From a virus (lineage: Duplodnaviria > Caudoviricetes), in the IMG/VR virus record IMGVR_UViG_3300013126_000002, positions 1 to 63,185 of that record: 63,185 nucleotides of DNA. One strand, written 5' to 3'. How positions within the stretch are numbered: the stretch's first letter is position 1; the number at the start of each line of letters is the position of its first letter. Below are positions 22,803 through 37,989 of this stretch, in pieces. The translations under genes were made by a program, and so were the position numbers. The notes below the pieces were generated by a model. The model saw only the letters and a program-made list of their open reading frames with translations. It was not told where the DNA came from and ran no database searches.

Positions 22803-22824
22803 ATCTGCCTGTTAACGGGCAGTC
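22803..22824. promoter_or_regulatory. 22-bp palindrome copy 1
   Basis: atCTGCCTGTTAACGGGCAGTC. Confidence 0.8.
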
Positions 22825-22848
22825 AATTAACGCTAAAAGGAGCCTATC

Positions 22849-23565
22849 ATGGCACGTAATAACCGCGCGGCAGCCGCCGCATCCGCCGCTGCTCAGGCAG
22901 CATCCGTTCAACCCAGCATCGAAGACCTGATTGTTGCCGAGTGGCAGCATCTGTTCGAAGCAAAGAAAGATACCGCCAAGTACGCTGAAGAATTGAAGCG
23001 TGCCGCTGGCGGTGCTGGCAAGGCAGCGCTGCAAATCATGTTCATCATCCGCGAGGATGTGGTGATGATCGAAGTGAAAGAGACGCGCCGCCCAACGCTG
23101 AAATCTACCGCCAGCGCCGAGAAGGCAATCGCGCTGGGGCTGAAACTGGCGAACGAAGCCGGACTTTCGGATAAGACCATTGAAGACGTGCAAGCGCTGA
23201 TCCGCCGCTTTGCACGCATGGATGTGGCGAAGCGTACCGCCGTACTTAGCAAGGCAGCAGGTATGGGCATCAACGCTATGCGTAAGGTCTTTACCGCCGT
23301 GGAAACCGGCAATGCTGGCGGCGAAGAAGGCGGCAGCGGCGAAGGCAGCGGCGAAGGCAAAACCGCACCAGCAGCGAAAGACCTGAAAGAGCCGGAATTG
23401 GCGGAACTTCTCGCCAGCGTAACCGGCATGGGTGATCGCGTCACATGGCTGCAAGTGATCGCACTGGTGCAGGAAATCGGCGTGCAGACCAGCGCCGAAC
23501 TTCTGCAAAAAGAAGTAACCGCAATCGACAAGCAGCAGGCGGCGAAGCAAAAGAAAGCCGCTTAG
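22849..23565 (+). CDS. Early hypothetical protein, paralogue A
   Basis: 238 aa, AAAAGGAG RBS, own promoter and terminator. Confidence 0.85.
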   Translation: MARNNRAAAAASAAAQAASVQPSIEDLIVAEWQHLFEAKKDTAKYAEELKRAAGGAGKAALQIMFIIREDVVMIEVKETRRPTLKSTASAEKAIALGLKLANEAGLSDKTIEDVQALIRRFARMDVAKRTAVLSKAAGMGINAMRKVFTAVETGNAGGEEGGSGEGSGEGKTAPAAKDLKEPELAELLASVTGMGDRVTWLQVIALVQEIGVQTSAELLQKEVTAIDKQQAAKQKKAA

Positions 23566-23588
23566 TTCTACCTGATTCAATCCTTCCA

Positions 23589-23614
23589 GCCCCGCGAAAG
23601 CGGGGCTTTTTTTT
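23589..23614 (+). terminator. Rho-independent terminator
   Basis: GCCCCGC-GAAA-GCGGGGC followed by T8. Confidence 0.9.
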
Positions 23615-23627
23615 GCCTTGAATTTGG

Positions 23628-23649
23628 GACTGGTCGTTAACGGGCAGTC
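23628..23649. promoter_or_regulatory. 22-bp palindrome copy 2
   Basis: GACTGGTCGTTAACGGGCAGTC, extended by GG/CC and followed by a T-tract. Confidence 0.85.
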
Positions 23650-23744
23650 CCGTTTTTTCTTTTTTGCCTGTACTTTCCTCCTGACTGGAGCGACATAGTA
23701 GTAGCCATGCCCCAATCCATCATCATGCACGCGTGAAATATCAC

Positions 23745-23773
23745 TTGACAAAATAGTATCAGACGAGCATAAT
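23745..23773 (+). promoter_or_regulatory. Early promoter P3
   Basis: TTGACA-17-CATAAT. Confidence 0.85.
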
Positions 23774-23807
23774 AACAATTCCCCTGCATTTTTCGCAGGG
23801 GAAGCCT

Positions 23808-23829
23808 GACTGGCCGTTAACGGCCAGTC
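23808..23829. promoter_or_regulatory. 22-bp palindrome copy 3 (perfect)
   Basis: GACTGGCCGTTAACGGCCAGTC. Confidence 0.9.
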
Positions 23830-23857
23830 GATCAACTATCTAACTAGGAGCAATATC

Positions 23858-24508
23858 ATGGCTAAATCCAAGCCCGCAGTACCCGCAGTTGACACCCTCG
23901 ACACTCTTGCCCGTAGCGAATGGCAAGTGCTGTTTTCCGCAAAGGCCGCGACCCGCACGCACGCCGAGCAACTAAAGGCCGCAGCAGGAAGTGCTGGTGC
24001 TGCTACGTTGCACCTCATGTCCCTGATCAAGGATGACCTGACCCTGATCGAGATCAAAGAGGAACGCAGGCCTGCTATCAAGACGACCGCCAGCGCCGAA
24101 CGCGTGATCGCTATCGGGATCGAGATGGCTCGCGCAGGTGGAATGGCCGACAAAACAGTCGAGGACGTGCAAGCCCTCATCCGCAGGTTCGCACGCATGA
24201 CCGCAGAAAAGCGGGCTGCTGTGCTGACGCAAGGGATCGATAAAGGCCTGAATGCCCTGCGAAAGGTGTTCCTTGCCCTTGAGAACGGCGCAAAGGGGTC
24301 GGATGAGGGTGAGGGTTCAACCGCCCCAGAAAAACAGCTCACAGAGCCCGACATCGCCGAGCTGCTGACAAGCATAACGAAGCACGGCACGCGCGAGACG
24401 TGGTTGTCCCTGATCGCAGTCGCAGTTGACTATGGGGTCGAGGCCGCAGCCAAGTTGGTCGAGGCTGACCTGAACAAGCCAGCCAAGCGCACCCGCAAAG
24501 CAGCCTAA
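23858..24508 (+). CDS. Early hypothetical protein, paralogue B
   Basis: 216 aa; shares EDVQALIRRFARM and TASAE with paralogue A. Confidence 0.85.
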   Translation: MAKSKPAVPAVDTLDTLARSEWQVLFSAKAATRTHAEQLKAAAGSAGAATLHLMSLIKDDLTLIEIKEERRPAIKTTASAERVIAIGIEMARAGGMADKTVEDVQALIRRFARMTAEKRAAVLTQGIDKGLNALRKVFLALENGAKGSDEGEGSTAPEKQLTEPDIAELLTSITKHGTRETWLSLIAVAVDYGVEAAAKLVEADLNKPAKRTRKAA

Positions 24509-24526
24509 TCCCCTGCTGTTACCCTT

Positions 24527-24555
24527 AAAGCCCTGCTTTTGCAGGGCTTTTTTTT
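24527..24555 (+). terminator. Rho-independent terminator
   Basis: GCCCTGC-TTTT-GCAGGGC followed by T8. Confidence 0.9.
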
Positions 24556-24622
24556 GTCCATTGTTCTCACCTGATAACATCTGCCCTGATATTCCCCAGC
24601 AAGATCAGACACTTAATGCTTT

Positions 24623-24644
24623 GACTGCCCGTTAACGGGCTGTC
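24623..24644. promoter_or_regulatory. 22-bp palindrome copy 4
   Basis: GACTGCCCGTTAACGGGCTGTC. Confidence 0.85.
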
Positions 24645-24699
24645 GTAGTCACGCTCGACTGGCGCGACATAGTAGTCGCCATGCCCCAAAAACACGTAG

Positions 24700-25400
24700 C
24701 ACTAACAGATGACGAGAACAATGAAGGAGAAAAAGTGTAATGAAATCAATGACTGGCCGTTAACGGCTAGTGCAAAGTGATACGAATATCTACTTACACG
24801 CGAAAAAGCAAATGAGACGGGTATGAAAGTGAAAGTCTAAAAACGTAATGAAATCAACGGAAACAGGTGCTCACAAAATAGGCATTGCGAGACGTGTAAG
24901 GGGTATGCACCCACTAGAGCCTGAAGTCCAAAATGTTATGGGTCTCCTACCTAAGTACCTGTTTTCTATATCTTTATTTATTATATTTATTATATGTATT
25001 GCATTTCTTGTCTAAAAACGGGAAATTACATACGCCACACGCGCGACCCCAACTTAAAGTAAAGTCTTAAGTTCTCATTTGAGACCTATAAGTCACCAAA
25101 AAACGCGTATCCTTATTTTTTTCGCCGAAATCTGCATTCTCACCATCCGGTAGTATATCCCCTTATTTTTCTCAATGAAATCAACGATCTTGCCAGCACC
25201 CAACAGGTTAGTACTTACACACCCGTCTCAAACTTCGCATACAATCTCAGATTCCCTTATATAAATCAAGCACTTAGGGGTCAGACCCACTTTCATCCGA
25301 TACTAATTATGTTGTTGATTTGTATAGACTTTCTCATTTGGTGCGTATAATTATACGCCACGTCATATTTAACACATTTGTTACTAATTCACTGCCTTTT
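24700..25400. other. Candidate replication origin (non-coding, AT-rich core, direct and inverted repeats)
   Basis: No ORF in the track; AT-rich tract ~24962-25000; three TGAAATCAA copies; IHF-consensus AATCAAGCACTTA at 25264. Confidence 0.5.
24751..24772. promoter_or_regulatory. 22-bp palindrome copy 5
   Basis: GACTGGCCGTTAACGGCTAGTG. Confidence 0.8.
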
Positions 25401-25422
25401 CACTGCCTTTTCCCTTTCTCAC

Positions 25423-25451
25423 TTGACAAATACGTATCGCTCTGGTACAAT
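25423..25451 (+). promoter_or_regulatory. Early promoter P4
   Basis: TTGACA-17-TACAAT with TGn extended -10. Confidence 0.85.
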
Positions 25452-25507
25452 ACGAGTTGGGGGAATGTTTCCCCCAAGTAGGGTTTGGGGTGCAGGTAGT
25501 GCTACCC

Positions 25508-25529
25508 CACTGGCCGTTAACGACCAGTC
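25508..25529. promoter_or_regulatory. 22-bp palindrome copy 6
   Basis: CACTGGCCGTTAACGACCAGTC. Confidence 0.85.
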
Positions 25530-25555
25530 AATTTTCCAACTATAAGGAGTGCATC

Positions 25556-26095
25556 ATGTGTGAAGGCAAGTGCAAGGGCAGTATGGATTCCACATCCACG
25601 GCCACGTTGTCGGTTCAACTGGCAGCAGCGCAGGAGGTGTCGGACATCTATCTTGGGGAAGCTAATGCCCTGATGGGTGATCTGGATCGCCTGTGCAAGT
25701 TGTTGGCTGTCGGTATGCGCCGTGACGATGAAGATCAGTTGAATGGCGAGATGGTTCTCATGATGGTGACTGCCGTGATTGAGCGCTATTACGAGGTGTT
25801 CAACTACAAGCAGGGCAAGTATGTACCCATGCACGTACGCATGGACAAGTTGCAGGAGGCGGGCATCATGACTGAGGGTGAGGCGTCTGCGGTACTGGCA
25901 CGTCTTGACGCGATGATCGAGATGTTCACCACGTTGGCTAAGGTCGAGGCGAGCGAGACGCAGGATGACGCGACTGAGGTGACCGAGGCCTTCATCGACA
26001 AGTACGGCAACAGCATCAGCAACGACACAACCGCTAAGGGCAGTACCTGCCCTTCACCCGATTCTATTTTCGTTGACACGGAGGGCAACGCGTAA
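25556..26095 (+). CDS. Early hypothetical protein (acidic)
   Basis: TAAGGAG RBS before the ATG at 25556. Confidence 0.75.
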   Translation: MCEGKCKGSMDSTSTATLSVQLAAAQEVSDIYLGEANALMGDLDRLCKLLAVGMRRDDEDQLNGEMVLMMVTAVIERYYEVFNYKQGKYVPMHVRMDKLQEAGIMTEGEASAVLARLDAMIEMFTTLAKVEASETQDDATEVTEAFIDKYGNSISNDTTAKGSTCPSPDSIFVDTEGNA

Positions 26096-26117
26096 GTGCA
26101 GTACCAGCAACACCTCT

Positions 26118-26139
26118 GACTGGCCGTTAACGACCAGTC
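26118..26139. promoter_or_regulatory. 22-bp palindrome copy 7
   Basis: GACTGGCCGTTAACGACCAGTC. Confidence 0.85.
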
Positions 26140-26202
26140 AACAGCAAGTGCAGTATCTGCACTTCAGCAGTACCCAACTACCTAACTCTTAAGGAGACTA
26201 GC

Positions 26203-29200
26203 ATGACAACAGTTACAACGACTGCGATGCCCAAGGTGAGCCTCAATAGCCCGACCTTGGTGCAAGAGCTGGCCGCGCACCAGCAGGAAGGACGTGTAGC
26301 AGGTATGCACGTTCTGATCGACATCCCTGCCGAACTGGCTGAGCTGTTCCGCTATCGCGCAATGACCTCCAGTAGCCCGCTGTTCCACACGCTGGAGGCT
26401 GAGAAGCCCGAAGCGTTCAAGCAGTTGCGGCGCTATCTGTCCCTGATGCACTACACGGCATGGAACGTACGCACCAACGCCTACATGGTCAAGATCGGAC
26501 GTATCGGCGACAACACCCACATGGACGAGACTGTGCCATCGCTCATGGCGCATCCGGCAGGTCGTGTGCCTGAGTGGCAGGTCGATCATGGCGCAGGTCA
26601 GTCAACCCATATATCAATGATGACCGACTGGCAGACGCCAAGTGCCGCACCCACCCCCTCACCCGCTTCATCCACGGCCTTCGTCTCGTCAGCACCCGCC
26701 ACTCCGGCATGGGTCTACACGCCGCGCGTCAAGCGCGTGCTGCCTGCATGGATGAAGGGCACCATCGGTGATAACTTCACGGGCAACATCCGCGCCGTGG
26801 TGCAGGTGCGAGGGCGCAACGCACTGGCTCCCGTAATGATGGACACCCCCATCTCGGCACTCAACCTGACCACCAACATCATGGCTCCGGCCAGCCCCTC
26901 GTCAGGTGCATCGCAAGGCGTCATGCCCATCACCGAACACATGCTCAACTGGGCACGCGGGCGGCACGTAGCTACGGCAGCATATAGCCACATGCGCAAC
27001 GCCGAGATGCGTACCGAGGCCGTCAACATCATGACCAAGATGATGGAGGAGAACCCCGACCTGTTCCAGTCTGCTGACGGCACGCCTCGGTTCGTAAGCC
27101 CGTCTACGGCATACGCCGAGTCGCCGTGGTCAGGTACGTCATCGTTCTGGTCACATCATCCGGCCATGTCATCCGTCCGTATGGTCACGACAGGCGCGAC
27201 TACTACTATGTGCTTCGGGACACGTAGCGAACAGGAGCAGTTCATCAATAGCTATGGCGATACGACTGTAACCGAGTCCATCCCTCTGGGCGCGTACGCA
27301 GGCCTGCTCCCTTGTGTCGTAACCGCATGGCGGCGACTGTCAGCGCATACCTATGATTCCATATCCATATCCGAAGGTCGCCATTACGCCATCGGACGTA
27401 ACCTGTTGTGCGTGCCCCTGTCCCTGCCTACTTGGCGTAGCGCCTCCTCCCGCGTGGCGTTCGAAGGGGTGGAGCCGAACAATACGGCGATATGGGCGTG
27501 GTTCATGCGTGCCGAAGGCGCGTCAGTCAACGCTGGCGCTGGAGACGAGGCCTTGCCGTTGGCAGTCGTCACCCAAAACATCAATACCCGCACATGGTCT
27601 ATCTACTACCTGAAGGGCGTGGTTCACGACTGTCCGTTAACAGCCAGTCAACCTATCGATCCGTCCCTCATCGTGGAGAGCCCCACGTCAGCCATCCACG
27701 TGGAGGCCAAGAACGACCTGCTCGCGCTGGGCGTGTCCAAGGCAGCAGCAACCCGTGCCCTGCACCTGTCCTTCCGTATCGCAACAGGCGCGTTCGCCAA
27801 GGCGTTGGGTAACCAGTACGAGAACGGGCGCGTGTCAACGACTGAAGCCCTTAGCTCCATCGACAGCTTCTGTGCCTATGGTCTGGTCGGTAGCGAGGAT
27901 AACAGCGGCGTGCAGGTCTATACCCGCTCCATCAAATGGCTGTCGCAACTGTGCAGCAACATGAGCTTCGCCCTGTCATCCGTGCAACGCAACGCACTGG
28001 CAGGTCAGCACATCGGCAGCTATCTGGTAACCTCCTTCCCCACAGCATTGGGCGATGCGATGACCCATAGCCGTATGATCGCCAACACGCAGCAGTCCGC
28101 GCAGGCGCTCCACATGGCTACTGCCCTGTGGCGAGGCATCCATGTGCCTAACTGCAATACCCGCCGCGCAGTAGAGATGCTGGGAACCCTCAACACCTAC
28201 CTCGTCAACACCAGTACAGCACTGCACCGCGAAGTACGCACTACCCTGCGTACCAACGGCTCGCCTGTGACCGACCCCATCGCATATCGGTTCGTGTACT
28301 GCCCGCTGACGCAACGCATCTGGCTGCGACTCGTTCCCGATGGCGAGGCGGCTAACGATGGCCGCATGGTCAACCACCCGTCAGCATCCGAGGTACACGC
28401 TACCTTGGGCGTGCGCGATATGGTCATGCGCTGTTGCGTAGGCTGCGGCACCATCGTCACTATCGACTGCGATTTGGATGTCCCGATGTGGTGGTCACCC
28501 GCTACGCATGAGACAGAGGCTGGCGAGATTTGCGGCTTGTGTCGGCAGACCAACTACGACACTTGCGAGTGCTGCGGTCAAGCCTCACTGCGGACAAATA
28601 TGTTCCGCACCGCAACAGGTGGCCGCGCTTGCAATTCGTGCGCTCCGCACTATCGCCGTTGTACGTCATGCAACACGCTCACCCATGAGAACGAGCATGA
28701 GGCGTGTAACGGGATGTGCAGTCGCTGTCACGCTGAAGCACAACGGGAACTCCGCCAGCGCGAGTCCATGCCGTTCGGTGGCTATCATCAGACCCGCCGT
28801 AATGGATCGTTCTTTACCGAACGCAACGCCGACCCCAAGGATAAGTCCATCCCCTTGGGCGTGGAGCTGGAGGTGTGCTGCACGGGCGACCATCGTGACG
28901 ATGTGCTGCATGAACTCGGCAAGAAAGGCTACGGGCACTACTTCATCGCCGAACGCGATGGCTCCCTGTCCGATGAGCGTGGTGTCGAGTTCGTATCTGC
29001 ACCCATGACCCGTAGCATGTGGGAGTGCGTGCTGTCCGGCAAGCCTACACCCCACGGGCACTCGCTCAATGTGTGCGCCGATATGCTGGGGTATGGCGTC
29101 CGTGGCTACAACGTCAAGGGCAACTACGGCACGTATGGCATCCATATCAGCGTGGCACGGCATCGCCTCACCCCGTTGCAGGAAGCACGCATCCTTGCTT

Positions 29201-29856
29201 TCTTGCTGGCTAAGAACAACACGGCGTTCGTGCAGGCCATCGCACAACGCGCCAGCATCTACGGCAGCGGCAAGCAGATCGGTAGCGGGTACAACGAGCG
29301 CGATACGTTCCGCAACGGCAAGCTCGGCGGCCTGCATCAGGAGTATATGGGCGACAAGCTGGTCAAGAAACCGGCAGGGTATGGCAAGTATTGCCCCGTC
29401 AATTACAAGGGCACCAGCAATGGTATGCCTGCCTTGGCCGAGTTCCGGATATTCCAAAGCACGCTGAACGAAGCCAGCTTCCGCAAGAACCTTGAGTTCG
29501 TGTGGGCACTGCTCGATTGGGTGCAGCAGCCGTCCGGTGGGTCTGTCAGCCATACCGACTTCTGTGCATGGCTTGGCCGTCCGGAGAACCGCAAGCAGTA
29601 TCCGAATCTGGTGGCCTACCTGATGCGTGACGAGTACAGCATCAAAGGCGCAAAGCGGGTTACCAATACTTGGTTCGGGCATATCAACCCGCCCAAGAAA
29701 GACCGCCGCGAGCCCGCTGTCGATGAGGAATCTATCGAGGACGCTCCGACTACTATGACGTTGACGGAGACGATCCCTGTGGTCACTATCGACTTGCCGT
29801 TTACCACCAGCACCACAACCAGCTCTACCTATGCTGTATACACCACTGCCCGTTAA
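26203..29856 (+). CDS. Large putative amidoligase (COOH-NH2 ligase) with CxxC Zn-ribbon array and long unknown N-terminus
   Basis: GVELEV, ERDGSL, GVEFVSAP, GIHISV and EFRIFQST motifs; several CxxC pairs upstream of them. Confidence 0.85.
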   Translation: MTTVTTTAMPKVSLNSPTLVQELAAHQQEGRVAGMHVLIDIPAELAELFRYRAMTSSSPLFHTLEAEKPEAFKQLRRYLSLMHYTAWNVRTNAYMVKIGRIGDNTHMDETVPSLMAHPAGRVPEWQVDHGAGQSTHISMMTDWQTPSAAPTPSPASSTAFVSSAPATPAWVYTPRVKRVLPAWMKGTIGDNFTGNIRAVVQVRGRNALAPVMMDTPISALNLTTNIMAPASPSSGASQGVMPITEHMLNWARGRHVATAAYSHMRNAEMRTEAVNIMTKMMEENPDLFQSADGTPRFVSPSTAYAESPWSGTSSFWSHHPAMSSVRMVTTGATTTMCFGTRSEQEQFINSYGDTTVTESIPLGAYAGLLPCVVTAWRRLSAHTYDSISISEGRHYAIGRNLLCVPLSLPTWRSASSRVAFEGVEPNNTAIWAWFMRAEGASVNAGAGDEALPLAVVTQNINTRTWSIYYLKGVVHDCPLTASQPIDPSLIVESPTSAIHVEAKNDLLALGVSKAAATRALHLSFRIATGAFAKALGNQYENGRVSTTEALSSIDSFCAYGLVGSEDNSGVQVYTRSIKWLSQLCSNMSFALSSVQRNALAGQHIGSYLVTSFPTALGDAMTHSRMIANTQQSAQALHMATALWRGIHVPNCNTRRAVEMLGTLNTYLVNTSTALHREVRTTLRTNGSPVTDPIAYRFVYCPLTQRIWLRLVPDGEAANDGRMVNHPSASEVHATLGVRDMVMRCCVGCGTIVTIDCDLDVPMWWSPATHETEAGEICGLCRQTNYDTCECCGQASLRTNMFRTATGGRACNSCAPHYRRCTSCNTLTHENEHEACNGMCSRCHAEAQRELRQRESMPFGGYHQTRRNGSFFTERNADPKDKSIPLGVELEVCCTGDHRDDVLHELGKKGYGHYFIAERDGSLSDERGVEFVSAPMTRSMWECVLSGKPTPHGHSLNVCADMLGYGVRGYNVKGNYGTYGIHISVARHRLTPLQEARILAFLLAKNNTAFVQAIAQRASIYGSGKQIGSGYNERDTFRNGKLGGLHQEYMGDKLVKKPAGYGKYCPVNYKGTSNGMPALAEFRIFQSTLNEASFRKNLEFVWALLDWVQQPSGGSVSHTDFCAWLGRPENRKQYPNLVAYLMRDEYSIKGAKRVTNTWFGHINPPKKDRREPAVDEESIEDAPTTMTLTETIPVVTIDLPFTTSTTTSSTYAVYTTAR
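27628..27649. promoter_or_regulatory. 22-bp palindrome copy 8 (intragenic)
   Basis: GACTGTCCGTTAACAGCCAGTC. Confidence 0.8.
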
Positions 29857-29865
29857 CGACCAGTG
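29844..29865. promoter_or_regulatory. 22-bp palindrome copy 9 (contains the amidoligase stop codon)
   Basis: CACTGCCCGTTAACGACCAGTG. Confidence 0.85.
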
Positions 29866-29893
29866 AACTAACTATCTATAAAGGAGTAATACC

Positions 29894-31192
29894 ATGTGTT
29901 TGATTATTGTTAAGCCCGTTGCTGCAACCTTCTCTGACGAATGGCTGCGCGACTTCTACTCTCGCAACGCTGATGGCTACGGCTTCATGTATGCCAAGGA
30001 CGGCGAGCTTATCGTTGACAAGGCAGTCCCCAAGACCGCTGACGAGTGGGTCACCGCGTTCCGTAAGCATGAGGAGTATGCCTGCGCTATCCACCTGCGT
30101 ATGCGTACCCACGGCGACATCGACCTTGCCAATGCCCACCCCTATCCGGTACTGACCAAAGAGGTCAATGGCCGCGATGTGTGGATGATGCACAACGGCA
30201 TCCTGTCGGGCGTAGCTTCCGACAATACCAAGATGTCCGATACGTGGCACTTCATCCGTGACGAGGTGCGCCCCATGCTTGAGCGTGACCCCGACCTGCT
30301 TACTGTCGAGCCGTTCCAGAAATGGCTGGGCAACCGCATCGGGTACAACAACAAGCTGGTGTTCGCCGATAACCTCGGCAACGTGGTCGTCATCAACAAG
30401 TCTGCGGGCAACGAGTTCAAGGGTTGCTGGCTGTCCAACACGTATGCTTGGTCGTACTCCATGCGTAATCAGGAGTCACCCGTTGCCAAGACCTACTTTC
30501 GTAACGGACGCTATATGTCCGAAGCGGAATGGGATGAGGAGTTCAGCGGTCACTACGGCAAGGTCAATGCTGGCGGCGGCTTCGTTGGCGGCAACAACGG
30601 CGCGTATCGTGGCTACAACGGCGGCGGCTCGTACTCTGGCAATAGCCATCGCTCTCTGGGGTCGTATACGCCTCCGGTGCCTCAGCCCGCACCCATCACG
30701 TCATCTGCCAAGCCCAGCCAGCCCGACCTGTATAACAAGGGCAAGGACTTCCAGACCTATGCGAACGGCGTCAATGTCGTACGCTACGATGCGGCGGCCA
30801 CGTCCCGTAAGGGCAAGAAAGGCAAGAAGAACGCCACCAAGAACCTGCCGGTAATCGATGGGCATGAGATGGTGTATATGTCTCGCAGCGAGTTCCTCGA
30901 CTACGCCACCTTCGCGCCGGGGCTGCTGTGGACGGCGTTTTCCGAGCTGTGCCTTGAGCTTGATCTGGAAACTGTCGTCACCTCCATCGATGATGACGAG
31001 GCCGACATGGAAGATTTGTCGAACGAGATCGAATCTGAAGCCGCCAAGATCGTAACGCAACGTGACGATGACGTGCCGCTGTTCGATCAGTCTCAGGCCG
31101 TCAAGACCGTGACTGCGCTCGATGACGAGTACGCCGAAGCCAACGCGCAGGTGCTGTCCGAACTGGGCTTCAAGGAGGGCTACCATGAGTAA
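29894..31192 (+). CDS. Class II (Ntn) glutamine amidotransferase
   Basis: N-terminal MC, N.DGYG, HLRMRTHG, NAHPY, HNGIL and SDT motifs; acidic C-terminal extension. Confidence 0.9.
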   Translation: MCLIIVKPVAATFSDEWLRDFYSRNADGYGFMYAKDGELIVDKAVPKTADEWVTAFRKHEEYACAIHLRMRTHGDIDLANAHPYPVLTKEVNGRDVWMMHNGILSGVASDNTKMSDTWHFIRDEVRPMLERDPDLLTVEPFQKWLGNRIGYNNKLVFADNLGNVVVINKSAGNEFKGCWLSNTYAWSYSMRNQESPVAKTYFRNGRYMSEAEWDEEFSGHYGKVNAGGGFVGGNNGAYRGYNGGGSYSGNSHRSLGSYTPPVPQPAPITSSAKPSQPDLYNKGKDFQTYANGVNVVRYDAAATSRKGKKGKKNATKNLPVIDGHEMVYMSRSEFLDYATFAPGLLWTAFSELCLELDLETVVTSIDDDEADMEDLSNEIESEAAKIVTQRDDDVPLFDQSQAVKTVTALDDEYAEANAQVLSELGFKEGYHE

Positions 31193-31448
31193 GCGAGACG
31201 CCACCCTGAACGATGTCATGCAGCGCCTGATCCGTGTGGAAACCCGCGTCACCACGCTGGGCAACCACATGGGCTGCGAAATGGGCAACGCCCTCGACCG
31301 CATCTATCTGGACGAGCAGAACCGCATCACTCTGCGCGGCCTCGATAGCCCCCTGTCGGCCATCCTCCAGTTCTGCCGTCTGGCAGGGCTGACTGGCGAA
31401 CAGCGGGTGTGGTACGCAGGCAAAATCTTCTGCGTGATTTGGGCTTGA
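31185..31448 (+). CDS. Hypothetical protein
   Basis: AAGGAGG RBS; RLIRVETRV. Confidence 0.7.
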   Translation: MSKRDATLNDVMQRLIRVETRVTTLGNHMGCEMGNALDRIYLDEQNRITLRGLDSPLSAILQFCRLAGLTGEQRVWYAGKIFCVIWA

Positions 31449-31480: not shown

Positions 31481-31502
31481 GACTGCCCGTTAACAGGCAG
31501 TC
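31481..31502. promoter_or_regulatory. 22-bp palindrome copy 10 (at about +1 of P5)
   Basis: GACTGCCCGTTAACAGGCAGTC, extended by GGT/ACC. Confidence 0.85.
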
Positions 31503-31953: not shown

Positions 31954-32760
31954 ATGAGCGAACCTAGAGTGTCGCGCAAAGCAGCAATCCTTGAGTACCT
32001 TAGTCGAGTACCTGATGGGGTGCGCGGTTCAGTAATTATGGAGGCACTGAACTTACCCCTGAACTTCTCCAGCGGGTATATGCGGGCGCACGTCAAGAGC
32101 GGTATGGTCGAGGTAATCAGCACCAACCCCAAAATCTACCGTATCACCAAGCACGGGCTGGCCGAGATCGGCGGTGCAGTGGGCACGGCCACGAATGTTC
32201 CCCCACGCGACCTTGCCCTTATTGAAAGACGGCCATCCACGCCCCCACTGGTCGTTAACGGGCAGTCAGCACTGGATAGCGCCATCGAAGCGCTGGCCGA
32301 TGCGCTAGTTGCCCGCGTGTCCGATGTCGTAGAGGCCAAGGTCGAAGGACTGATCGCAGGTATAGTGGAGACGCAGGTAGCCCGCAGTCTGGAGAAGCTG
32401 ACTGCTTCCATCAAGCCTGCCACAGGGCTGGGCATGGAGGCATATCGTACAAAACTGGCCGCTCCACCGCCTAAAGCAAAGCTGCCCCGTGTCTTGGTAG
32501 GTGGGTTGCTTCCCGATCAGGCCAACATCATCCAGAAAGAGTTTTCCGATGCGCTGGATATTCGGTTCTTGGGCGCTAACGAGAACGTGCAGTTGTGGAA
32601 GTCCAACGCGTCCCATGCGGATGCGGTGTTCGTGTTTGCAGACAAGATCAGCCACATGCTGATCCGTGCAGTAGAGAGCGTAGGAGCAACGCCCATCATC
32701 GTTAAGGGCGGCATGTCATCCCTGCGCGAAGCGCTAACCAAATACTACGTGGAGGTGTGA
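31954..32760 (+). CDS. Putative winged-HTH regulator with C-terminal DUF2325-like domain
   Basis: N-terminal AILEYL...YRITKHG resembles wHTH; C-terminal ADAVFVFADKISH...GGMSSL. Confidence 0.6.
   Translation: MSEPRVSRKAAILEYLSRVPDGVRGSVIMEALNLPLNFSSGYMRAHVKSGMVEVISTNPKIYRITKHGLAEIGGAVGTATNVPPRDLALIERRPSTPPLVVNGQSALDSAIEALADALVARVSDVVEAKVEGLIAGIVETQVARSLEKLTASIKPATGLGMEAYRTKLAAPPPKAKLPRVLVGGLLPDQANIIQKEFSDALDIRFLGANENVQLWKSNASHADAVFVFADKISHMLIRAVESVGATPIIVKGGMSSLREALTKYYVEV
32246..32267. promoter_or_regulatory. 22-bp palindrome copy 11 (intragenic)
   Basis: CACTGGTCGTTAACGGGCAGTC. Confidence 0.8.
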
Positions 32761-32761
32761 T

Positions 32762-33054: not shown

Positions 33055-33248
33055 CCGAGTACAGAGTGACATACAGGATATTTTGCGGCGGCGACTCGCG
33101 GCTGTTGTTTGTAGAAGCCGATGGCCCTATTGCGGCTGAAGCGGTGGCGCTGGATCACATCCGCCGTACCTATGGGCACGCGCAGTCCCATATCAGGTCG
33201 GTAGAGCCGTACATCCGCCCCGTAGGGGGGCGGGTAATTTCAGACTAG
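33051..33248 (+). CDS. Small hypothetical protein
   Basis: GGAGG RBS. Confidence 0.65.
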   Translation: MTEYRVTYRIFCGGDSRLLFVEADGPIAAEAVALDHIRRTYGHAQSHIRSVEPYIRPVGGRVISD

Positions 33249-33259
33249 AGGAGAACGAA

Positions 33260-33424
33260 ATGTTCCGTAATTACGACAACATGGACGACTGGTGGGATGC
33301 GGTCGGAAAGGAGAAGTGGCGTGAACTGGAACGCGAGAAGGCAGCCGAGCGTGCAGCAGACGCTGCAAGAGCAGCACAGGAAGAACGTGACCGAGCTAAT
33401 CCTGAACATGATAAAGGAGTTTAA
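33260..33424 (+). CDS. Small hypothetical protein (54 aa; not in ORF track)
   Basis: GAGGAG RBS; MFRNYDNMDDWW... Confidence 0.6.
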   Translation: MFRNYDNMDDWWDAVGKEKWRELEREKAAERAADAARAAQEERDRANPEHDKGV

Positions 33425-33636
33425 TGATGGACAAGAAGTATTCGGGCAAGGTAGTCAACCTGCCCATCGAGACGCACCAGCGGTTGGAAGCATATCGTGC
33501 AAAACTGTCGGCGCATTTAGGGTTTACACCCTCGTTGTCGGAGACTATCGCGTTCGCGCTTAAGGCGCGTGAACGTGACGAGCAGGCTAAAGACTGCCCG
33601 TTAACGACCAGTGAAGGTGCGACTGATGACCGTTAA
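33424..33636 (+). CDS. Putative ribbon-helix-helix DNA-binding protein
   Basis: KVVNLP.ETHQRL...SLSETIAFAL pattern. Confidence 0.5.
   Translation: MMDKKYSGKVVNLPIETHQRLEAYRAKLSAHLGFTPSLSETIAFALKARERDEQAKDCPLTTSEGATDDR
33592..33613. promoter_or_regulatory. 22-bp palindrome copy 12 (intragenic)
   Basis: GACTGCCCGTTAACGACCAGTG. Confidence 0.85.
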
Positions 33637-33943
33637 GGACGTTATCCTGCAAGCGTTGCAGGCCAAGGATCAGACCACTTCCGAGCTGGAGGCCTTGGGG
33701 TTTCACCGCGACACTGTGCAGCGCCGTACCAAGGAGTTGGTGGAGGAAGGGCTGGTGTTCAGGTGTGGCAGGGGCAGCAAGACCTACTACACGACCAAGG
33801 GCAAGGGCGTATTTCCCACCAAGAAAGAACGCCCCCTCACCCTGCCCGACCTCCCGCCACTTATGTTGTGGTGGGGCGGGTACAACGACAAATCCCCTGA
33901 TCCTGATCAGGGGCGATACATCAACGGAGGGCAATGGTCATGA
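33626..33943 (+). CDS. Winged-HTH DNA-binding protein
   Basis: ILQAL..TTSEL..RDTVQRRTKELVEEGLV.R.GRG. Confidence 0.7.
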   Translation: MTVKDVILQALQAKDQTTSELEALGFHRDTVQRRTKELVEEGLVFRCGRGSKTYYTTKGKGVFPTKKERPLTLPDLPPLMLWWGGYNDKSPDPDQGRYINGGQWS

Positions 33944-34149
33944 GTACGAATCGCAGGTATAGCGTAGGAGACAAGGTAATGCTGAACACCGCAGCCTTGT
34001 TCGCCTCCCCCATCCGCACCAACAAGTGGATCGAGGCAGAAATCAAGGACAGGACGCCGACACGCGCATCGCCCCGCTATTGGGTATTCCACGACTGTGG
34101 CAGTCCTTTGTGGGTGTCTGATCACATGCTGAAGGAGAAAGAACAATGA
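33940..34149 (+). CDS. Hypothetical protein
   Basis: YSVGDKV, SH3-like; ATGA coupling. Confidence 0.6.
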   Translation: MSTNRRYSVGDKVMLNTAALFASPIRTNKWIEAEIKDRTPTRASPRYWVFHDCGSPLWVSDHMLKEKEQ

Positions 34150-34517
34150 ACGAAGAATTGCAGAAAAACGCAGCCGACCTGCTGCTGATGCTGAAAGACG
34201 GTATCGAAAAAGGTACGCAAGTAGCCGGTGAGCAACTGCCTGATCTGGCCTACCAGTATGTGATGTATGGTCGGGTAACGCTTACCTTCGGTGTGCTGTG
34301 CGGCATCGCCATGCTTGCCTTCACAGTCTATTACGCCAACAGAATAGCTAAAAGAGCCGAGGACGAAGGACAAGATCATGTCTTGGTGTGGATTGCAGCA
34401 GCAATCTCTCTAACAATCTTTGGTGTACCAACAACAGTTGCCTTGCCTGAGTTCTTCATGGTCTGGTTCGCCCCGAAAATCTGGTTGTTACAAGAAATTG
34501 CGAAGGTGCTGAAATGA
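34146..34517 (+). CDS. Membrane protein
   Basis: Two hydrophobic segments; EQLPD and WFAPKIWLL motifs common in phages. Confidence 0.75.
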   Translation: MNEELQKNAADLLLMLKDGIEKGTQVAGEQLPDLAYQYVMYGRVTLTFGVLCGIAMLAFTVYYANRIAKRAEDEGQDHVLVWIAAAISLTIFGVPTTVALPEFFMVWFAPKIWLLQEIAKVLK

Positions 34518-34687
34518 CTTTCGATGAGTGGCTTGAAACCGCCAACACTGATCGTATAACTCTAAGGGATGCATGGCAAGCAAGCCGCAAACAGGCGTTT
34601 ATAGAGGCGGCAGGAGTATGTGATGACTTTGAGGCGTTTGCAGTTAAGGCGGACATCCTCGCCCTTGTGGAGAAAGAACATGACTGA
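34514..34687 (+). CDS. Small hypothetical protein (not in ORF track)
   Basis: MTFDEWL...AWQA; ATGA coupling. Confidence 0.6.
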   Translation: MTFDEWLETANTDRITLRDAWQASRKQAFIEAAGVCDDFEAFAVKADILALVEKEHD

Positions 34688-34916
34688 CATTATCGAAAGA
34701 CTGCGCTCACCGGCTGTCGTGTTTTACGAGTACGCTGCAGATGACGGTGCGTTGCTTAAAGAAGCCGCTGATGAGATTGAACGCCTCCGTGAAGAACTAG
34801 CGAAAGCGCAGAAGGATGCGGAGAAGTGGCAGCAGCATGTAGCAAGACAACGCGCACCTGCCCATAGTTGTGACATTGAAGGTTGCGCTGTGTGCGACCC
34901 GACCTACGGATTGTGA
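34680..34916 (+). CDS. Hypothetical protein
   Basis: MTDIIERLR...EAADEIERLR motif. Confidence 0.7.
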   Translation: MTDIIERLRSPAVVFYEYAADDGALLKEAADEIERLREELAKAQKDAEKWQQHVARQRAPAHSCDIEGCAVCDPTYGL

Positions 34917-34925
34917 GGAATCGAA

Positions 34926-35270
34926 ATGAAAGACCAAGTAACTTTAACCAAGGAGAAACAAATGAACAGTCAAGCAGAAACTATCACTATCAATGGCGTT
35001 GATTATGTGCGTGCAGATCAAGCCAAACATATCATCGGGAATCGCCAAGTTGTTGTCGTGGATCGTGGTTGGATTTTCGCCGGAGATATGGAGCGCGTTG
35101 ACGGACGTATCAAGCTGACCCGCGCACTCCACGTTTTCAAGTGGGAATCCATCGGCTTTGCAAAGATGGTAGAAACCGCCAAAGCAGACCTGCGCCCGAT
35201 TGCTGATGTTGACATTCCAGCAGACTCCGAAATCTTCTCTATTCCGGTAGAAGAATCATGGGGGCTGTAA
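34926..35270 (+). CDS. Conserved phage protein (DUF6948-like)
   Basis: ITINGVDYVRAD..VVVDRGWIFAG; the start may be at 34962. Confidence 0.65.
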   Translation: MKDQVTLTKEKQMNSQAETITINGVDYVRADQAKHIIGNRQVVVVDRGWIFAGDMERVDGRIKLTRALHVFKWESIGFAKMVETAKADLRPIADVDIPADSEIFSIPVEESWGL

Positions 35271-35512
35271 CGGAGTTTAGACCTGTCGGCTACGGCGACG
35301 GCAACGGCAACGGCAGCGGCTACGGCAACGGCAGCGGCTACGGCGACGGCGACGGCAACGGCTACGGCAACGGCAGCGGCTACGGCAACGGCGACGGCAA
35401 CGGCTACGGCGACGGCTACGGCTACGGCAACGGCGACGGCAACGGCTACGGCGACGGCGACGGCTACGGCTACGGCACTATCAGAAAGAACAACCGGAGG
35501 CGTAGATCATGA
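35258..35512 (+). CDS. Glycine-rich (G-Y/D/N/S) repeat protein
   Basis: GYGDGNG repeats and a basic tail. Confidence 0.65.
   Translation: MGAVTEFRPVGYGDGNGNGSGYGNGSGYGDGDGNGYGNGSGYGNGDGNGYGDGYGYGNGDGNGYGDGDGYGYGTIRKNNRRRRS
35288..35476. repeat. Hexamer tandem repeat GGC(TAC/GAC/AAC/AGC)
   Basis: About 30 consecutive units. Confidence 0.9.
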
Positions 35513-35835
35513 CCACCAAAGACCAAGAGCCAGTAGCGTGGGAATGTGTAAACCGAGTAGATAAGACTGTCTACCTGACACGCCAACCGATTACGTCAGA
35601 GTTTGCTGACACACTTTGGAAATGCACCCCGCTCTACGCCCACCCCACAGACCTCGTTGCCGAGAACGGAACATGGACATGGGGAAAGAATGAAAAAGAC
35701 GGGGAGTTTTTCATCGAATCATCCGATTTCACCCATGATGTGCGCTTGTATCTCAACGGAGACTTTGCGGATGAACAGCAGAAGATTATGTACCTGACCG
35801 AGATTGCCAAACGGCTTAACCTCAACGGAGTATGA
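35509..35835 (+). CDS. Hypothetical protein
   Basis: EPVAW...PLYAHP fused to a DFTHDVRL..GDF module. Confidence 0.7.
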   Translation: MTTKDQEPVAWECVNRVDKTVYLTRQPITSEFADTLWKCTPLYAHPTDLVAENGTWTWGKNEKDGEFFIESSDFTHDVRLYLNGDFADEQQKIMYLTEIAKRLNLNGV

Positions 35836-35836
35836 A

Positions 35837-36016
35837 ATGACCAAGCGAATCGTTCTTAACCGTGTACTGACGCGCGAGATTGGAAGGCCGGTTAGAACAG
35901 GATCGAGCAGGTACAACAGACAACGCACCTTGAGGATATTCACTAGCTGCCGGTACAGAGGCGGCGTGTGGCTGACCAGAGAGGTAAGGCGCAGCATGAT
36001 GGAGGATTTGAAATGA
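35837..36016 (+). CDS. Small basic hypothetical protein
   Basis: GGAG RBS; ATGA coupling. Confidence 0.5.
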   Translation: MTKRIVLNRVLTREIGRPVRTGSSRYNRQRTLRIFTSCRYRGGVWLTREVRRSMMEDLK

Positions 36017-36348
36017 CCACCAGAGAGGTATTGATTGAGGCGGCACAGGCTGTGCGCTACATACTGGATACTGACACGCCAGATCACGACAACAGAAAGT
36101 TGGAGGTTCGCATAGCCCAAGCAGTCATTGACTGCGTAAAACAAGAAGCCCTCGTTGCCGAGAAGGATGCTGAGCTTGAACGGCTGCGCGCTGAGATTGC
36201 CAAACTTACCAAGTGCATTGAACGGATGCGTGTTGCAGGTGGTTCACAAGAGTTCCACGCGGCGTTTGAACTAGCGAAGGATGCAATTGCGCCAAACAGC
36301 GACCATCACGGAGAGGATTGGACACAACGAGATTCGGAGTATTTGTAA
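36013..36348 (+). CDS. Hypothetical protein
   Basis: GGAGG RBS; coiled-coil segment. Confidence 0.65.
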   Translation: MTTREVLIEAAQAVRYILDTDTPDHDNRKLEVRIAQAVIDCVKQEALVAEKDAELERLRAEIAKLTKCIERMRVAGGSQEFHAAFELAKDAIAPNSDHHGEDWTQRDSEYL

Positions 36349-36794
36349 TGAACTGTTCAAACTGGCCTAGCGCCTACGAAGTATGGGTACAACGCAGTGA
36401 CACTAATCACGGATGGCGGCGGTATAGCATTTATGAATCTTATGAGCAGGCGGAAGCCACGGTAAAACGTGTCGAAGGTGCGCCGCTGGAATTGAAGATT
36501 GTTCCGCTGTATGTCGCAGCACCTGACCAAACAGACGCCCTCGTTGCAGCCACATACATGGCGGCAGCGGATGTGTGTGAAAAAGCAATGCCACTTCATG
36601 CAACCGCTACGGGGGTATATGTTTCAGAAAAAATCCGCGCTCTCACCCCTGCTGATGCGCTGGCAAAGCTCAGGGAGTTGATGCTGGAGGTGGCGACACG
36701 GGCAGCGTTTGATGCGGTACTAAAAGGCGGCAGATCGATGGATGACCTTGAAGCCATAGTAGACGAGGTGCTTGGGAAACGTAAAGCCAAATGA
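36348..36794 (+). CDS. Hypothetical protein
   Basis: GGAG RBS; TAATG coupling. Confidence 0.65.
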   Translation: MNCSNWPSAYEVWVQRSDTNHGWRRYSIYESYEQAEATVKRVEGAPLELKIVPLYVAAPDQTDALVAATYMAAADVCEKAMPLHATATGVYVSEKIRALTPADALAKLRELMLEVATRAAFDAVLKGGRSMDDLEAIVDEVLGKRKAK

Positions 36795-36900
36795 CCGGAA
36801 ACGTAAAGGGGTTCTGCATGGCAATCATTAGAGAGAGCAAAAGTCTTGAAGTGGATGGGTGTGTGGAGAAACGTAAAGCCAGCGAATAGGAAACGTAAAC

Positions 36901-37011
36901 ATGAAACCTAACGTGCGCCGCCCAATGTGGCGGATGCGGGTAGTCAAGTCCCGCAAGGGTAAAGGTAGTTTTAAACGAAAGGAAAAATATGAAACGGCAG
37001 ACAAAGGCTGA
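36901..37011 (+). CDS. arfA: ArfA-like alternative ribosome-rescue peptide (36 aa; not in ORF track)
   Basis: MKPNVRRPMWRMRVVKSRKGKGSFKRKEKYETADKG; matches the ArfA core P-L-F-R-x-R-V-x-K-x-K-K-G-K-G-S-Y-x-R-K; AGGA RBS. Confidence 0.65.
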   Translation: MKPNVRRPMWRMRVVKSRKGKGSFKRKEKYETADKG

Positions 37012-37288
37012 AGTCAGGTACGAACGGCAGGTCAAGGAGTGGCTATATGCACAGCATAATGTGGAGGAGGCCTTGCTTACCTTGGACTATATGGATCAGC
37101 TAATCCGTGATCGGGATGCCGCTGTACGCCACGCGAATTTTGTCTCTGACCTAGGGCTTCGATACAAAAAGACTAGGGACATCTATAAGGCGGTTCTCAG
37201 GGCGTGCAAGGCCGTGGGTACGCCTGAACTGGTGCCCCGTGTGGTGAAGGAAGTACGCCGCATAGTATGGGCAAAGAACATCGATTGA
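36989..37288 (+). CDS. Hypothetical protein
   Basis: AAGGA RBS; 99 aa. Confidence 0.65.
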   Translation: MKRQTKAEVRYERQVKEWLYAQHNVEEALLTLDYMDQLIRDRDAAVRHANFVSDLGLRYKKTRDIYKAVLRACKAVGTPELVPRVVKEVRRIVWAKNID

Positions 37289-37301
37289 AAGGAGGAGGGT
37301 T

Positions 37302-37469
37302 ATGTGCGACAGTCGATTTAGCGTACTGGTGTTTCTGGCCTACTGCCTGCTGTGTACTATCGTAGGTGCGCTTGCCATGTGGCTTGCGCTGAGCGGTACG
37401 CATACGTGCAGTGTAGAGGTTCAGCATACCGATCATGTGGCCGTTTACATTACCGAGTGCAAGATATAG
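37302..37469 (+). CDS. Small membrane protein (not in ORF track)
   Basis: AGGAGG RBS; one hydrophobic segment. Confidence 0.6.
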   Translation: MCDSRFSVLVFLAYCLLCTIVGALAMWLALSGTHTCSVEVQHTDHVAVYITECKI

Positions 37470-37516
37470 ACTAGCAATTCGGCCTCACCTTTATTGCGAA
37501 AGCAGCCCAAGATATT

Positions 37517-37795
37517 GTGATGATTATCTTAAACCGAGGTGGGGCCGATTCTACTTGGGGAGGTAGTGTGGAAGGTACGATCAAAGTTAATAACGTCTTG
37601 ATGCCGATGATGCCGTACGGCTGTCACTCGGACAATTCCCCCGACAGATTCAAAGAACCCCTGCTCACCAATGGCCGCGTGGTATGGCCGCACCGCATGA
37701 GTACGCAGTGCAGGTACGATGGGCGCGAGCGCGACCAGCGATGCGCCGAGTGCGAGCATGTGTGGGATACCGCGTACGTCGAAACCCTTATCTAG
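37517..37795 (+). CDS. Hypothetical Cys-containing protein (start uncertain)
   Basis: PYGCH...MSTQCRYD...RCAEC. Confidence 0.55.
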   Translation: MMIILNRGGADSTWGGSVEGTIKVNNVLMPMMPYGCHSDNSPDRFKEPLLTNGRVVWPHRMSTQCRYDGRERDQRCAECEHVWDTAYVETLI

Positions 37796-37803
37796 GAGCC
37801 TTT

Positions 37804-37989
37804 ATGGAGAAACTGGCAACAATCATCCCGCAGGATAGATGGTGGCGCAGAGGGGAGTGCGTAGTGCGTATTCTCAGTCGCGGCCATTACCCTGACACCG
37901 CATGGGTACGTCTGCCCAACGATGTAGAAACCGAGGTCTACATCAGCGATCTTGAGAACCCGCCTCCTCTACCCGTTAACGGACAGTGA
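37804..37989 (+). CDS. Hypothetical protein
   Basis: AGGAG RBS. Confidence 0.6.
   Translation: MEKLATIIPQDRWWRRGECVVRILSRGHYPDTAWVRLPNDVETEVYISDLENPPPLPVNGQ
37967..37988. promoter_or_regulatory. 22-bp palindrome copy 13 (degenerate)
   Basis: ctCTaCCCGTTAACGGACAGTG. Confidence 0.55.

Follow-up and report, generated by a model that had tools for sequence, protein, structure and literature searches.

A phage genome of 63,185 b, one complete IMG/VR virus record (IMGVR_UViG_3300013126_000002; its full length is called the window below), carries 13 copies of a 22-bp palindrome, all of them in the early arm. Related phages carry arrays of the same kind in the same part of their genomes, each lineage with a palindrome of its own. 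The palindrome array is a real, selected feature, shared in kind by the clade. Tentatively, and at slightly less than an even chance, we explain the copies as dispersed dyad operators for a fast-evolving control protein of the early arm that the phage itself would encode.

The window was searched with the pattern SACTGNNNGTTAACNNNCAGTS, allowing up to 2 mismatches. Thirteen matches were found, against a mean of 0.03 expected from 100 dinucleotide shuffles (largest shuffle count, 1), and their starts are exactly the 13 coordinates given in an earlier note on this DNA, which had been made from the letters alone. Mismatches to the pattern numbered 0-1 except at the two sites so marked in Table 1, and a single site is a perfect 22-bp palindrome. 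When a symmetric half-site weight matrix was scored across the genome, the 13 sites reached 26.5-38.3 bits and the next best position 4.0, so that the earlier remark that the other ~48 kb held no copies stands; orphan half-sites were also lacking (no isolated half-site above 13.6). All 13 sites fall in 22803-37988, which is 15.2 kb or 24% of the record, at irregular spacings of 128-4375 b. By our own arithmetic, the probability that 12 further sites would land in the same 24% is ~4e-8.

The 11-bp half-site reads G/C-A-C-T-G-(G/C/T)-(C/T)-(C/T)-G-T-T, in short form GACTG-SYC-GTT. Position 3 (C) and positions 9-11 (GTT/AAC) are invariant in 26 of 26 half-sites and ACTG is nearly so, in agreement with the near-invariance of ACTG and GTTAAC noticed earlier, while positions 6-8 vary. 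The hexamer GTTAAC occurs 15 times in the 63,185 b, 13 times within the motif and otherwise at 47451 and 61380, which makes 2 occurrences outside the motif against 10.3 expected. Palindromes of 6 bp are strongly avoided in the window as a whole (371 palindromic hexamers seen vs 978 expected), and 19 of the 42 palindromic hexamers with an expectation of at least 8 occur at most once, among them CAGCTG (0 vs 28.8 expected) and CGATCG (0 vs 26.9 expected). The avoidance is alike in the relatives G001, G005, G012 and G015, with partly different hexamers, and looks like a broad avoidance of restriction sites. Since the genome purges short palindromes, the 13 retained 22-bp copies are maintained by positive selection.

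Searches with the DNA polymerase yielded 30 loci of relatives (34-50% identity), and those with the large terminase 80 loci (44-69% identity). The relatives have a common layout of structural genes, terminase, divergent junction, variable early arm and DNA polymerase, and the clade consists of roughly 60-68-kb uncultivated phages from freshwater and soil. In at least 13 related lineages, a palindrome peculiar to the lineage, 10-24 bp long, is present in 5-15 copies, only between the terminase genes and the DNA polymerase (Table 1); in whole records, 11 sites lie in 7.7 kb of G010, 9 in 11.8 kb of G011 and 10 in 12.7 kb of G012. As a control, the commonest exact palindrome family was counted on the early and the late side of 22 terminase loci whose early side spans 5 kb or more. 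On the early sides, at least 5 copies were found at 12 of the 22 loci and 3 copies at 4 more, vs usually 1-2 copies, with a maximum of 4, on the late sides of the same loci. An array of lineage-specific palindromes is thus a trait of the clade, which the earlier note had not seen.

The trait has its limits. The complete record G015 has repeated promoters only and no palindrome array, KPP25 has no repeated palindrome in the 44 of 64 kb examined, and no clear palindrome family was found in L114, L135, L143 and L175. In the 30 of 61 kb examined of Rollin (L310), only 4 copies of one 21-b palindrome were present, within 480 b; this palindrome, AAAAGGTAGC-A-AGTTACTACCTTTT-like, lies at 3-500 and is clustered rather than dispersed. 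L145 and L132 carry imperfect dyads whose arms bracket GGAG and abut the ATG. Close relatives with the window's own motif were not found: the pattern scan of viral contigs gave 42 contigs with one site each, and that of metagenome contigs gave at least 118 stretches, with one site in each of the 80 among the matches listed. A phmmer comparison of the window's early arm with those of the relatives detected no common protein except one 87-aa family. A further palindrome, AAGAATTCTT, is present in the window at 22019-22028, just 5' of the first early promoter, and is common to the early-arm starts of G001, G005, L159 and L148 although their repeated palindromes differ; it may serve as a control site conserved in the clade, or mark the vicinity of a genome end.

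The placement of each site was determined by a consensus promoter/terminator scan, crude gene calls based on ribosome-binding sites (RBS) and direct reading. Four of the 13 sites follow promoter-like elements, two follow terminator-like hairpins, one is non-coding, four lie at gene junctions and two lie deep in open reading frames (ORFs). The sites at 22803, 23808 and 25508 end 24-28 nt 5' of an ATG, and the promoters preceding them are 11/12 matches. Scans, gene calls and reading bore out the placements claimed earlier (after promoters and terminators, on a stop codon and inside coding sequences), together with the frames in which the site is read, DCPLT at 27628 and 33592 and PL(V/P)VNGQ at 32246 and 37967. 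Across the clade, 60 of 121 sites end no more than 45 nt 5' of an RBS plus start, vs 15% of random positions in the same arms, and this placement fits expression control.

Table 1. Palindromic sites, promoters and candidate reader genes in the window, and the palindromes of related lineages
Feature	Position	Strand	Description
Site 1	22803-22824		5' leader of ORF 22849; 25 nt past the -10 of promoter 22749-22777; 2 mismatches
Site 2	23628-23649		directly 3' of terminator-like hairpin 23588-23607 of ORF 22849
Site 3	23808-23829		5' leader of ORF 23858; 34 nt past the -10 of promoter 23745-23773; perfect palindrome
Site 4	24623-24644		3' of terminator-like hairpin 24527-24550 of ORF 23858
Site 5	24751-24772		in ~1-kb AT-richer non-coding stretch 24509-25555
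Site 6	25508-25529		5' leader of ORF 25556; 56 nt past the -10 of promoter 25423-25451
Site 7	26118-26139		intercistronic, between ORF 25556-26095 and ORF 26203-29856
Site 8	27628-27649		deep within the 1217-aa ORF, read DCPLTASQ
Site 9	29844-29865		GTTAAC includes the TAA stop of the 1217-aa ORF; 28 nt to the ATG of ORF 29894
Site 10	31481-31502		7 nt past promoter-like TTGACA(31445)-N17-TAATCT; 15 nt to the ATG of ORF 31518
Site 11	32246-32267		within ORF 31954-32760, between winged-helix-looking N-terminal part and remainder; read PPLVVNGQS
Site 12	33592-33613		last codons of ORF 33424-33636; 12 nt to ATG 33626 of the winged-helix ORF
Site 13	37967-37988		last codons of ORF 37804-37989; 3 nt to ATG 37992 (DUF6378 protein); 2 mismatches
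Sigma70-like promoter	22749-22777	+	TTGACA-17-CATAAT, 11/12
Similar sigma70-like promoters	23745-23773, 25423-25451, 22031-22059		consensus scan
70-aa ORF	33424-33636	+	candidate reader; predicted homodimer, ribbon-helix-helix-like
105-aa winged-helix ORF	33626-33943	+	candidate reader; HVO_A0261_N, E 1.4e-6, 28.6 bits, below cut-off of 35
128-aa Xre-like helix-turn-helix ORF	44542-44928	+	weak candidate; between SSB-like gene and primase
87-aa ORF	31185-31448	+	weak candidate; sole early-arm protein common to the clade
G001			GTGTTAACGCGTTAACAC; 8 copies, all inside 9.5 of 67.9 kb
G002, G003			ACGGTGTGCYRGCACACYGT; ~15 copies each
G005			GTGTGTGCATGCACACAC; 7 copies
G006			GTGTAGGCATGCCTACAC; 7 copies
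G007			TGTTTAAACA; 9 copies
G008 and L136			GTTACTSAGTAAC; 3 and 7 copies
L117			TGTGACACGTGTCACA; 11 copies
L159			TGTGAC-N4-GTCACA; 8 copies
L167			GTGAAC-N2-GTTCAC; 7 copies
L133			TGTCACGACA-N3-TGTCGTGACA; 9 copies
L169			CGATTAAC-N2-GTTAATCG; 8 copies
L148			TGTTAA-N3-TTAACA; 5 copies
L122			TGTGAC-N5-GTCACA; 5 copies

The symmetry of the element could be read on DNA or on RNA. The N3 positions had been described earlier as varying independently between half-sites, and this was seen again: at mirror position 6 and likewise at position 7, a Watson-Crick pair is present in 7 of 13 window sites, approximately as independent half-sites would give, and the mismatches include G·G, C·C and C·A. 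Counted on the sense strand, the window has 4 G·U vs 9 C·A mismatches. The arms of 121 sites from 14 phages contain 27 G·T, 27 A·C and 43 other mismatches, vs 987 paired positions, which is no overall excess of G·U. In six lineages (the window phage, G001, G005, G006, L117 and G007) the palindrome is continuous through an invariant centre, and a hairpin loop would not require a palindromic, invariant centre. Asymmetric centres are found in both orientations relative to transcription, CCAG 8 times and CTGG 6 times in G002 and both TGA and TCA in L136. In G001, G005, L159 and L148, the first copy is flanked by the AAGAATTCTT element upstream and by the -35 of the first early promoter downstream, and copies lie directly behind terminator hairpins in the window phage, L117, L159, L169, L136 and L148; little or no RNA is expected at such positions, which an RNA element leaves unexplained. 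Given the invariant, self-palindromic GTTAAC, the independent halves and the absence of a G·U preference, a dyad-symmetric DNA site fits better than a hairpin.

In the explanation we favour, the two half-sites would form a dyad-symmetric site on double-stranded DNA, read by a phage-encoded oligomer (a dimer or a dimer of dimers). We infer that a protein binds the sites, that the phage encodes it and that its effect is repressive; our confidence in this mechanism is moderate. At the site over the transcription start (31481), initiation would be blocked, and at the others the bound protein would be a roadblock for host RNA polymerase that is elongating or reading through. With copies at or shortly after promoters, behind terminators and at the majority of early gene junctions, the early arm would be silenced jointly when the sites are occupied, shutting as one unit. 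With a different palindrome in each lineage, site and reader must co-evolve fast.

Several observations, on RNA structure here and on the reader and the phage's way of life below, weigh against such operators. Twelve of the 13 window sites can form RNA hairpins, their minimum free energies ranging from -16.7 to -2.7 kcal/mol and their stems reaching 9 bp, the UUAA loop being closed by C-G and G-C. In place of palindromes, L146 (GTTACAGC; reverse complement, 14920-18755) and L137 (TGTCCAGAG; reverse complement, 15086-16381) have hairpins 5' of their early genes with conserved loops and covarying stems, in at least 4-5 different compensating forms and nearly all on the sense strand, and these true hairpins keep the RNA reading alive. 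The outer flank of the G002 sites has 8 G·T vs 2 A·C, one G002 copy has a compensatory double change, and the arms around the RBS in L145 and L132 look like a translational element. The sites would then be hairpins in early mRNAs, bound or cleaved by an RNA-binding protein of the phage or its host, for processing, stability or translation control of each cistron, and the proximity of half of the 121 sites to an RBS plus start agrees with this as well. We consider this, the chief rival of the operator explanation, somewhat unlikely. It would have to accommodate a six-fold range of stability, one window site that forms no hairpin, the self-complementary loops that are invariant in six lineages, the copies upstream of first promoters and behind terminators, and the lack of any Rfam family match. 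RNase III requires about two helical turns of stem, and the T7-type processing site is an intercistronic hairpin with an internal loop; with stems of 8-9 bp, too short for this, such a site was rejected. The earlier preference for a DNA site over an RNA hairpin therefore holds in its main argument of independent halves, strengthened by the palindromic centre and the lack of G·U preference, and is weakened by the L146 and L137 hairpins and by the folding of 12 of the 13 sites. We gave the DNA reading roughly twice the weight of the RNA reading.

For the operator explanation, the best local candidate for the reader is, from structure prediction, the product of ORF 33424-33636, possibly together with the neighbouring winged-helix ORF; site 12 crosses the end of the former and stops 12 nt short of the latter. 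The homodimer of ORF 33424 was predicted with an interaction prediction score from aligned errors (ipSAE) of 0.44, vs 0.00 for the best of 3 controls; runs agreed in at least 84% of contacts and the predicted local distance difference test score (pLDDT) was at least 66. Of 30 proteins solved as pairs of one chain, 21 attained this ipSAE mark, whereas none of 23 solved as single chains did. In the predicted dimer, the N-terminal strands pair residue 11 with residue 11, and pairing of N-terminal strands is the hallmark of a ribbon-helix-helix dimer; the dimer pass may itself stem from likeness to solved dimers of that fold. Two such dimers could sit on the two 11-bp half-sites in an Arc/Mnt-like arrangement. 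The three conserved blocks of the site, ~8 bp apart, would be unusual for a simple helix-turn-helix dimer, and this spacing suits paired ribbon-helix-helix dimers better.

The search for a reader also supplied points on the other side. Pfam and PHROG scans, with presence/absence tests, pinned down no binding protein and left candidates only. ORF 33424 has no Pfam or PHROG match, and a homologue was not detected in any of the relatives. Pfam, applied to 80 early ORFs from 7 relatives (~9 kb beside the terminase), found no DNA-binding domain and only MoxR-type AAA and VWA/metallopeptidase pairs; the weight of this is limited, ORF 33424 of the window being likewise invisible to Pfam. The N-terminal part of ORF 31954 reads as a winged helix by eye and has no Pfam match, and the predicted model of ORF 23858/22849 was unusable (pLDDT 40.3). 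The Xre-like helix-turn-helix ORF has positional orthologues, between the SSB-like gene and the primase, in G001, G005, G007, G008 and G015, and it was rejected as reader, being absent from the palindrome-bearing G010, G011 and G012 and present in the palindrome-free G015. The 87-aa family has 16 relatives, none of them a named protein, among 5.8 billion proteins and invariant R14, R17, E19 and R21 in a long N-terminal helix; its model reaches a pLDDT of 87.9, yet no fold in the PDB matches (best E 1.6). As reader it was rejected likewise, since it is absent in G007, G010 and G012 and present in the palindrome-free G015. Both proteins are weak candidates because their presence does not track the palindromes.

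The phage appears virulent, a further point against, and the shut-off of its early genes is putative. No tyrosine integrase, serine recombinase/resolvase or ParB_N domain was found in the window by searches whose positive controls matched, which upholds the absence of an integrase reported earlier. An extension of the operator explanation, doubtful in our judgement, is that virulent phages possess, in palindromes and reader together, an immunity-like address system, which would silence a phage's own early arm and that of superinfecting kin. Conflict among co-infecting relatives would then drive the turnover of palindromes, as in the repressor-operator pairs of temperate phages but without lysogeny; silencing of kin with the same address might be by-product or design, and an RNA-hairpin version would have taken over the niche in L146 and L137.

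The sites might instead be junctions for gene-cassette exchange in a hyperplastic early arm, kept through the gain or swapping of ORFans. The early arms share one protein family only, yet the lineage palindrome precedes nearly every early gene. In the window, units of promoter, site, gene, terminator and site are duplicated in 22686-24690, where ORFs 22849 and 23858 are paralogues with 50% identical proteins, and the intragenic copies at 27628 and 32246 lie at apparent domain boundaries. Between G002 and G003, one gene replacement begins ~20 nt after one palindrome and ends ~66 nt short of the following one; of the 4 indel borders in this pair, only about 2 are near a palindrome. A precedent exists in T4-type phages, where PeSL (promoter plus stem-loop) units flank ORFans in hypervariable regions and are proposed, in the account given there, to mediate shuffling (PMC4122927). 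These cassettes may be the nearest evolutionary analogue; promoter-site and terminator-site pairs do occur in the window. PeSL is a composite of terminator and promoter conserved as such, whereas the element here is a bare dyad, found also without promoters and inside genes, and lineage-specific. A length of 16-22 bp is short for homologous exchange, the lineage-specific sequence and the perfect dyad would go unexplained, and the searches for integrases and serine recombinases found no site-specific recombinase. We regard exchange as quite improbable as the explanation of the array; it could coexist with a regulatory role. In the same region, a third repeat, GCGACATAGTAGTAGCC, occurs in 3 copies upstream of promoters (22686-24690), and TAGT-rich motifs akin to it precede palindromes in G001, G002 and G005.

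The window's minus-strand genes occupy 1-21.7 kb and 51-63 kb. The former encode a portal-like protein (PHROG 'head-tail adaptor'), the large terminase, a putative small terminase and an endonuclease VII/HNH-like protein. The plus-strand arm, 22-48.7 kb, has ORFans first and then a replication module with DNA polymerase, a PD-(D/E)XK nuclease, a helicase-like ORF and a primase-like ORF. A 123-b terminal repeat sits within a 2285-aa open frame that crosses the junction of the record; lying inside a gene, it indicates an assembly overlap of a circular or permuted map and no physical end. No close phage was found by megablast against the phage collection of GenBank. The DNA polymerase is 34% identical to that of Pseudomonas phage KPP25, and the large terminase 48% identical to that of Pseudomonas phage Rollin, the closest cultivated phage by terminase. 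DNA runs that match the window's sequence carry the label lake water metagenome, and contigs from four of the DNA runs are identical to the window across the early arm, with zero variants at any site and no ends. Searches of the window for Rfam families and tRNAs gave 0 matches each.

Other features of the genome were also recorded. Two tandem 48-b repeats lie at 21854-21949, in the divergent region that separates the endonuclease VII-like gene from the first early promoter. Small HNH-type nucleases number two, one at 40078-40353, after the DNA polymerase (57-70% identical in relatives), and one, endonuclease VII-like, at 21426-21758, heading the terminase operon. The 1217-aa ORF 26203-29856 has Cys-rich repeats and no relative in viral contigs. 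The 432-aa ORF that follows it (region 26203-31192) begins MC and has a sub-threshold match to a class-II glutamine amidotransferase (GATase_4, E 7.6e-5, 22.2 bits, cut-off 23); several relatives have MoxR-type AAA plus VWA/metallopeptidase pairs where the window has these two ORFs. ORF 35258-35512 is built of GYGNG/GDGNG repeats, and its DNA is matched by many unrelated metagenome contigs, with depth spiking to 66-127 over this ORF vs ~0-9 elsewhere.

The sites could also be bound by a host factor, for instance a global regulator or a restriction-modification component, or be protected or decoy restriction sites in the first-entering DNA. The motifs of several lineages seem similar to operator shapes common in hosts, as with TGTGA-N6-TCACA in L117 and L159. 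The extreme avoidance of restriction sites, with GTTAAC nevertheless kept in the motif, also accords with this. A host factor would have to be a different one for each of at least 13 related phages, and the half-sites vary on one theme (GTGT.., TGTGA.., TGTTA..), which one evolving reader family fits better. Nothing links the sites to DNA entry, and the 123-b repeat marks no physical end. We hold this to be very improbable.

More improbable still is a role in DNA transactions, as partition (centromere-like) sites, sites for loading a replication initiator or primase, or terminase recognition sites. The array adjoins the terminase genes, two copies stand in the 1-kb non-coding stretch that the earlier note took for an origin, and an Xre-like helix-turn-helix gene neighbours the primase. 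Origin and pac sites cluster, whereas these sites are scattered over 15 kb and follow gene starts, and the presence of the helix-turn-helix gene does not track them. A search for PF02195 (ParB_N), which the reader of a parS/ParB or KorB-OB array would carry, gave nothing at E <= 1, while its control matched in 11 of 14 genomes.

The least probable explanation, and to us barely credible, is that the palindromes are hairpin promoters of the phage N4 type, used by an injected virion RNA polymerase. The giant 2285-aa ORF (60411-63062 plus 1-4203, minus strand) matches giant DarB-like proteins at its C-terminus and, at its N-terminus, the PHROG 'virion RNA polymerase' (E 1.2e-15); the palindromes do stand shortly 5' of early genes. 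The PHROG match is confined to a non-catalytic N-terminal stretch (profile positions 213-415 of 3406). T7-like polymerases have the motifs R-x3-K-x6-8-YG, T/DxxGR and HDS, and a crude pattern search of the giant ORF found none of them; a search for PF00940 gave no match and was uninformative, its control being silent as well. The Atlas features of the ORF suggest LPD domains as in polyvalent proteins. Strong promoters of the sigma70 type are already present upstream of the sites, and the L159 palindrome is only ~8 nt from the RBS.

Among known systems, the stoperators of cluster A mycobacteriophages come nearest in function. They are present in more than 20 copies of one short sequence in promoters and short intergenic spaces, are thought to stop both initiation and elongation, and vary in sequence between related phages, according to the description in PMC9283540. 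They are asymmetric 13-mers that function in one orientation, spread genome-wide and read in prophage immunity by a monomeric two-domain protein (helix-turn-helix plus stoperator domain), the L5 gp71-type immunity repressor. The window resembles them in having many copies of one short site, 11 of the 13 being at promoters, terminators or gene junctions. It differs in that the site is a 22-bp dyad restricted to the early arm, in relatives with asymmetric centres in both orientations, and in that stoperator phages are temperate, whereas the window phage is without integrase, resolvase or ParB_N. In the ORFs scanned, neither Pfam nor PHROGs revealed a repressor-like family, the stoperator repressor family not having been searched by name.

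The Arc/Mnt operators of P22 immI are ~21 bp long, with two 10-11-bp half-sites each bound by one ribbon-helix-helix dimer. The window site is similar, with 22 bp in two 11-bp half-sites and a small predicted-dimer protein encoded across site 12. P22 has 1-2 operators at one locus and the window has 13, and the fold and DNA binding of the window's protein are predictions. Many dispersed copies of one repressor site over early or lytic genes are known from the conserved inverted repeats (CIRs) of the phiC31 repressor and the C1 operators of P1, and SPbeta reportedly has dispersed repressor sites of this kind (SPBRE/MrpR). These phages are temperate and their sites serve lysogeny, whereas the window phage is apparently virulent. 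T1-like lytic phages (T1, Stevie) have 16-20 copies of a 22-bp repeat, mostly intergenic and of unknown function (PMC4319613). That repeat is asymmetric, co-oriented with transcription and, in the description cited, not reported as limited to the early arm, whereas the window site is symmetric. In the narrowly searched literature, with subscription journals outside its scope, no report was found of lineage-specific symmetric arrays limited to the early arms of virulent phages.

The array is most likely of the dispersed-operator kind already known, here in a new form that is symmetric, limited to the early arm and lineage-specific. Dispersed arrays of a single regulatory site are known mainly from temperate phages, where they keep the prophage silent. 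Here a symmetric array marks only the early arm of apparently virulent phages, its sequence changing with each lineage, in genomes that purge palindromes. If a phage protein reads the sites, the clade would hold a compact, orthogonal family of operator-regulator pairs and would shed new light on the timing, and perhaps the policing, of early expression in lytic phages. Should the sites act at the RNA level instead, each cistron would be under a control element of a new class. On either reading, the array provides a simple sequence signature that delimits the early region in unannotated phages of the clade.

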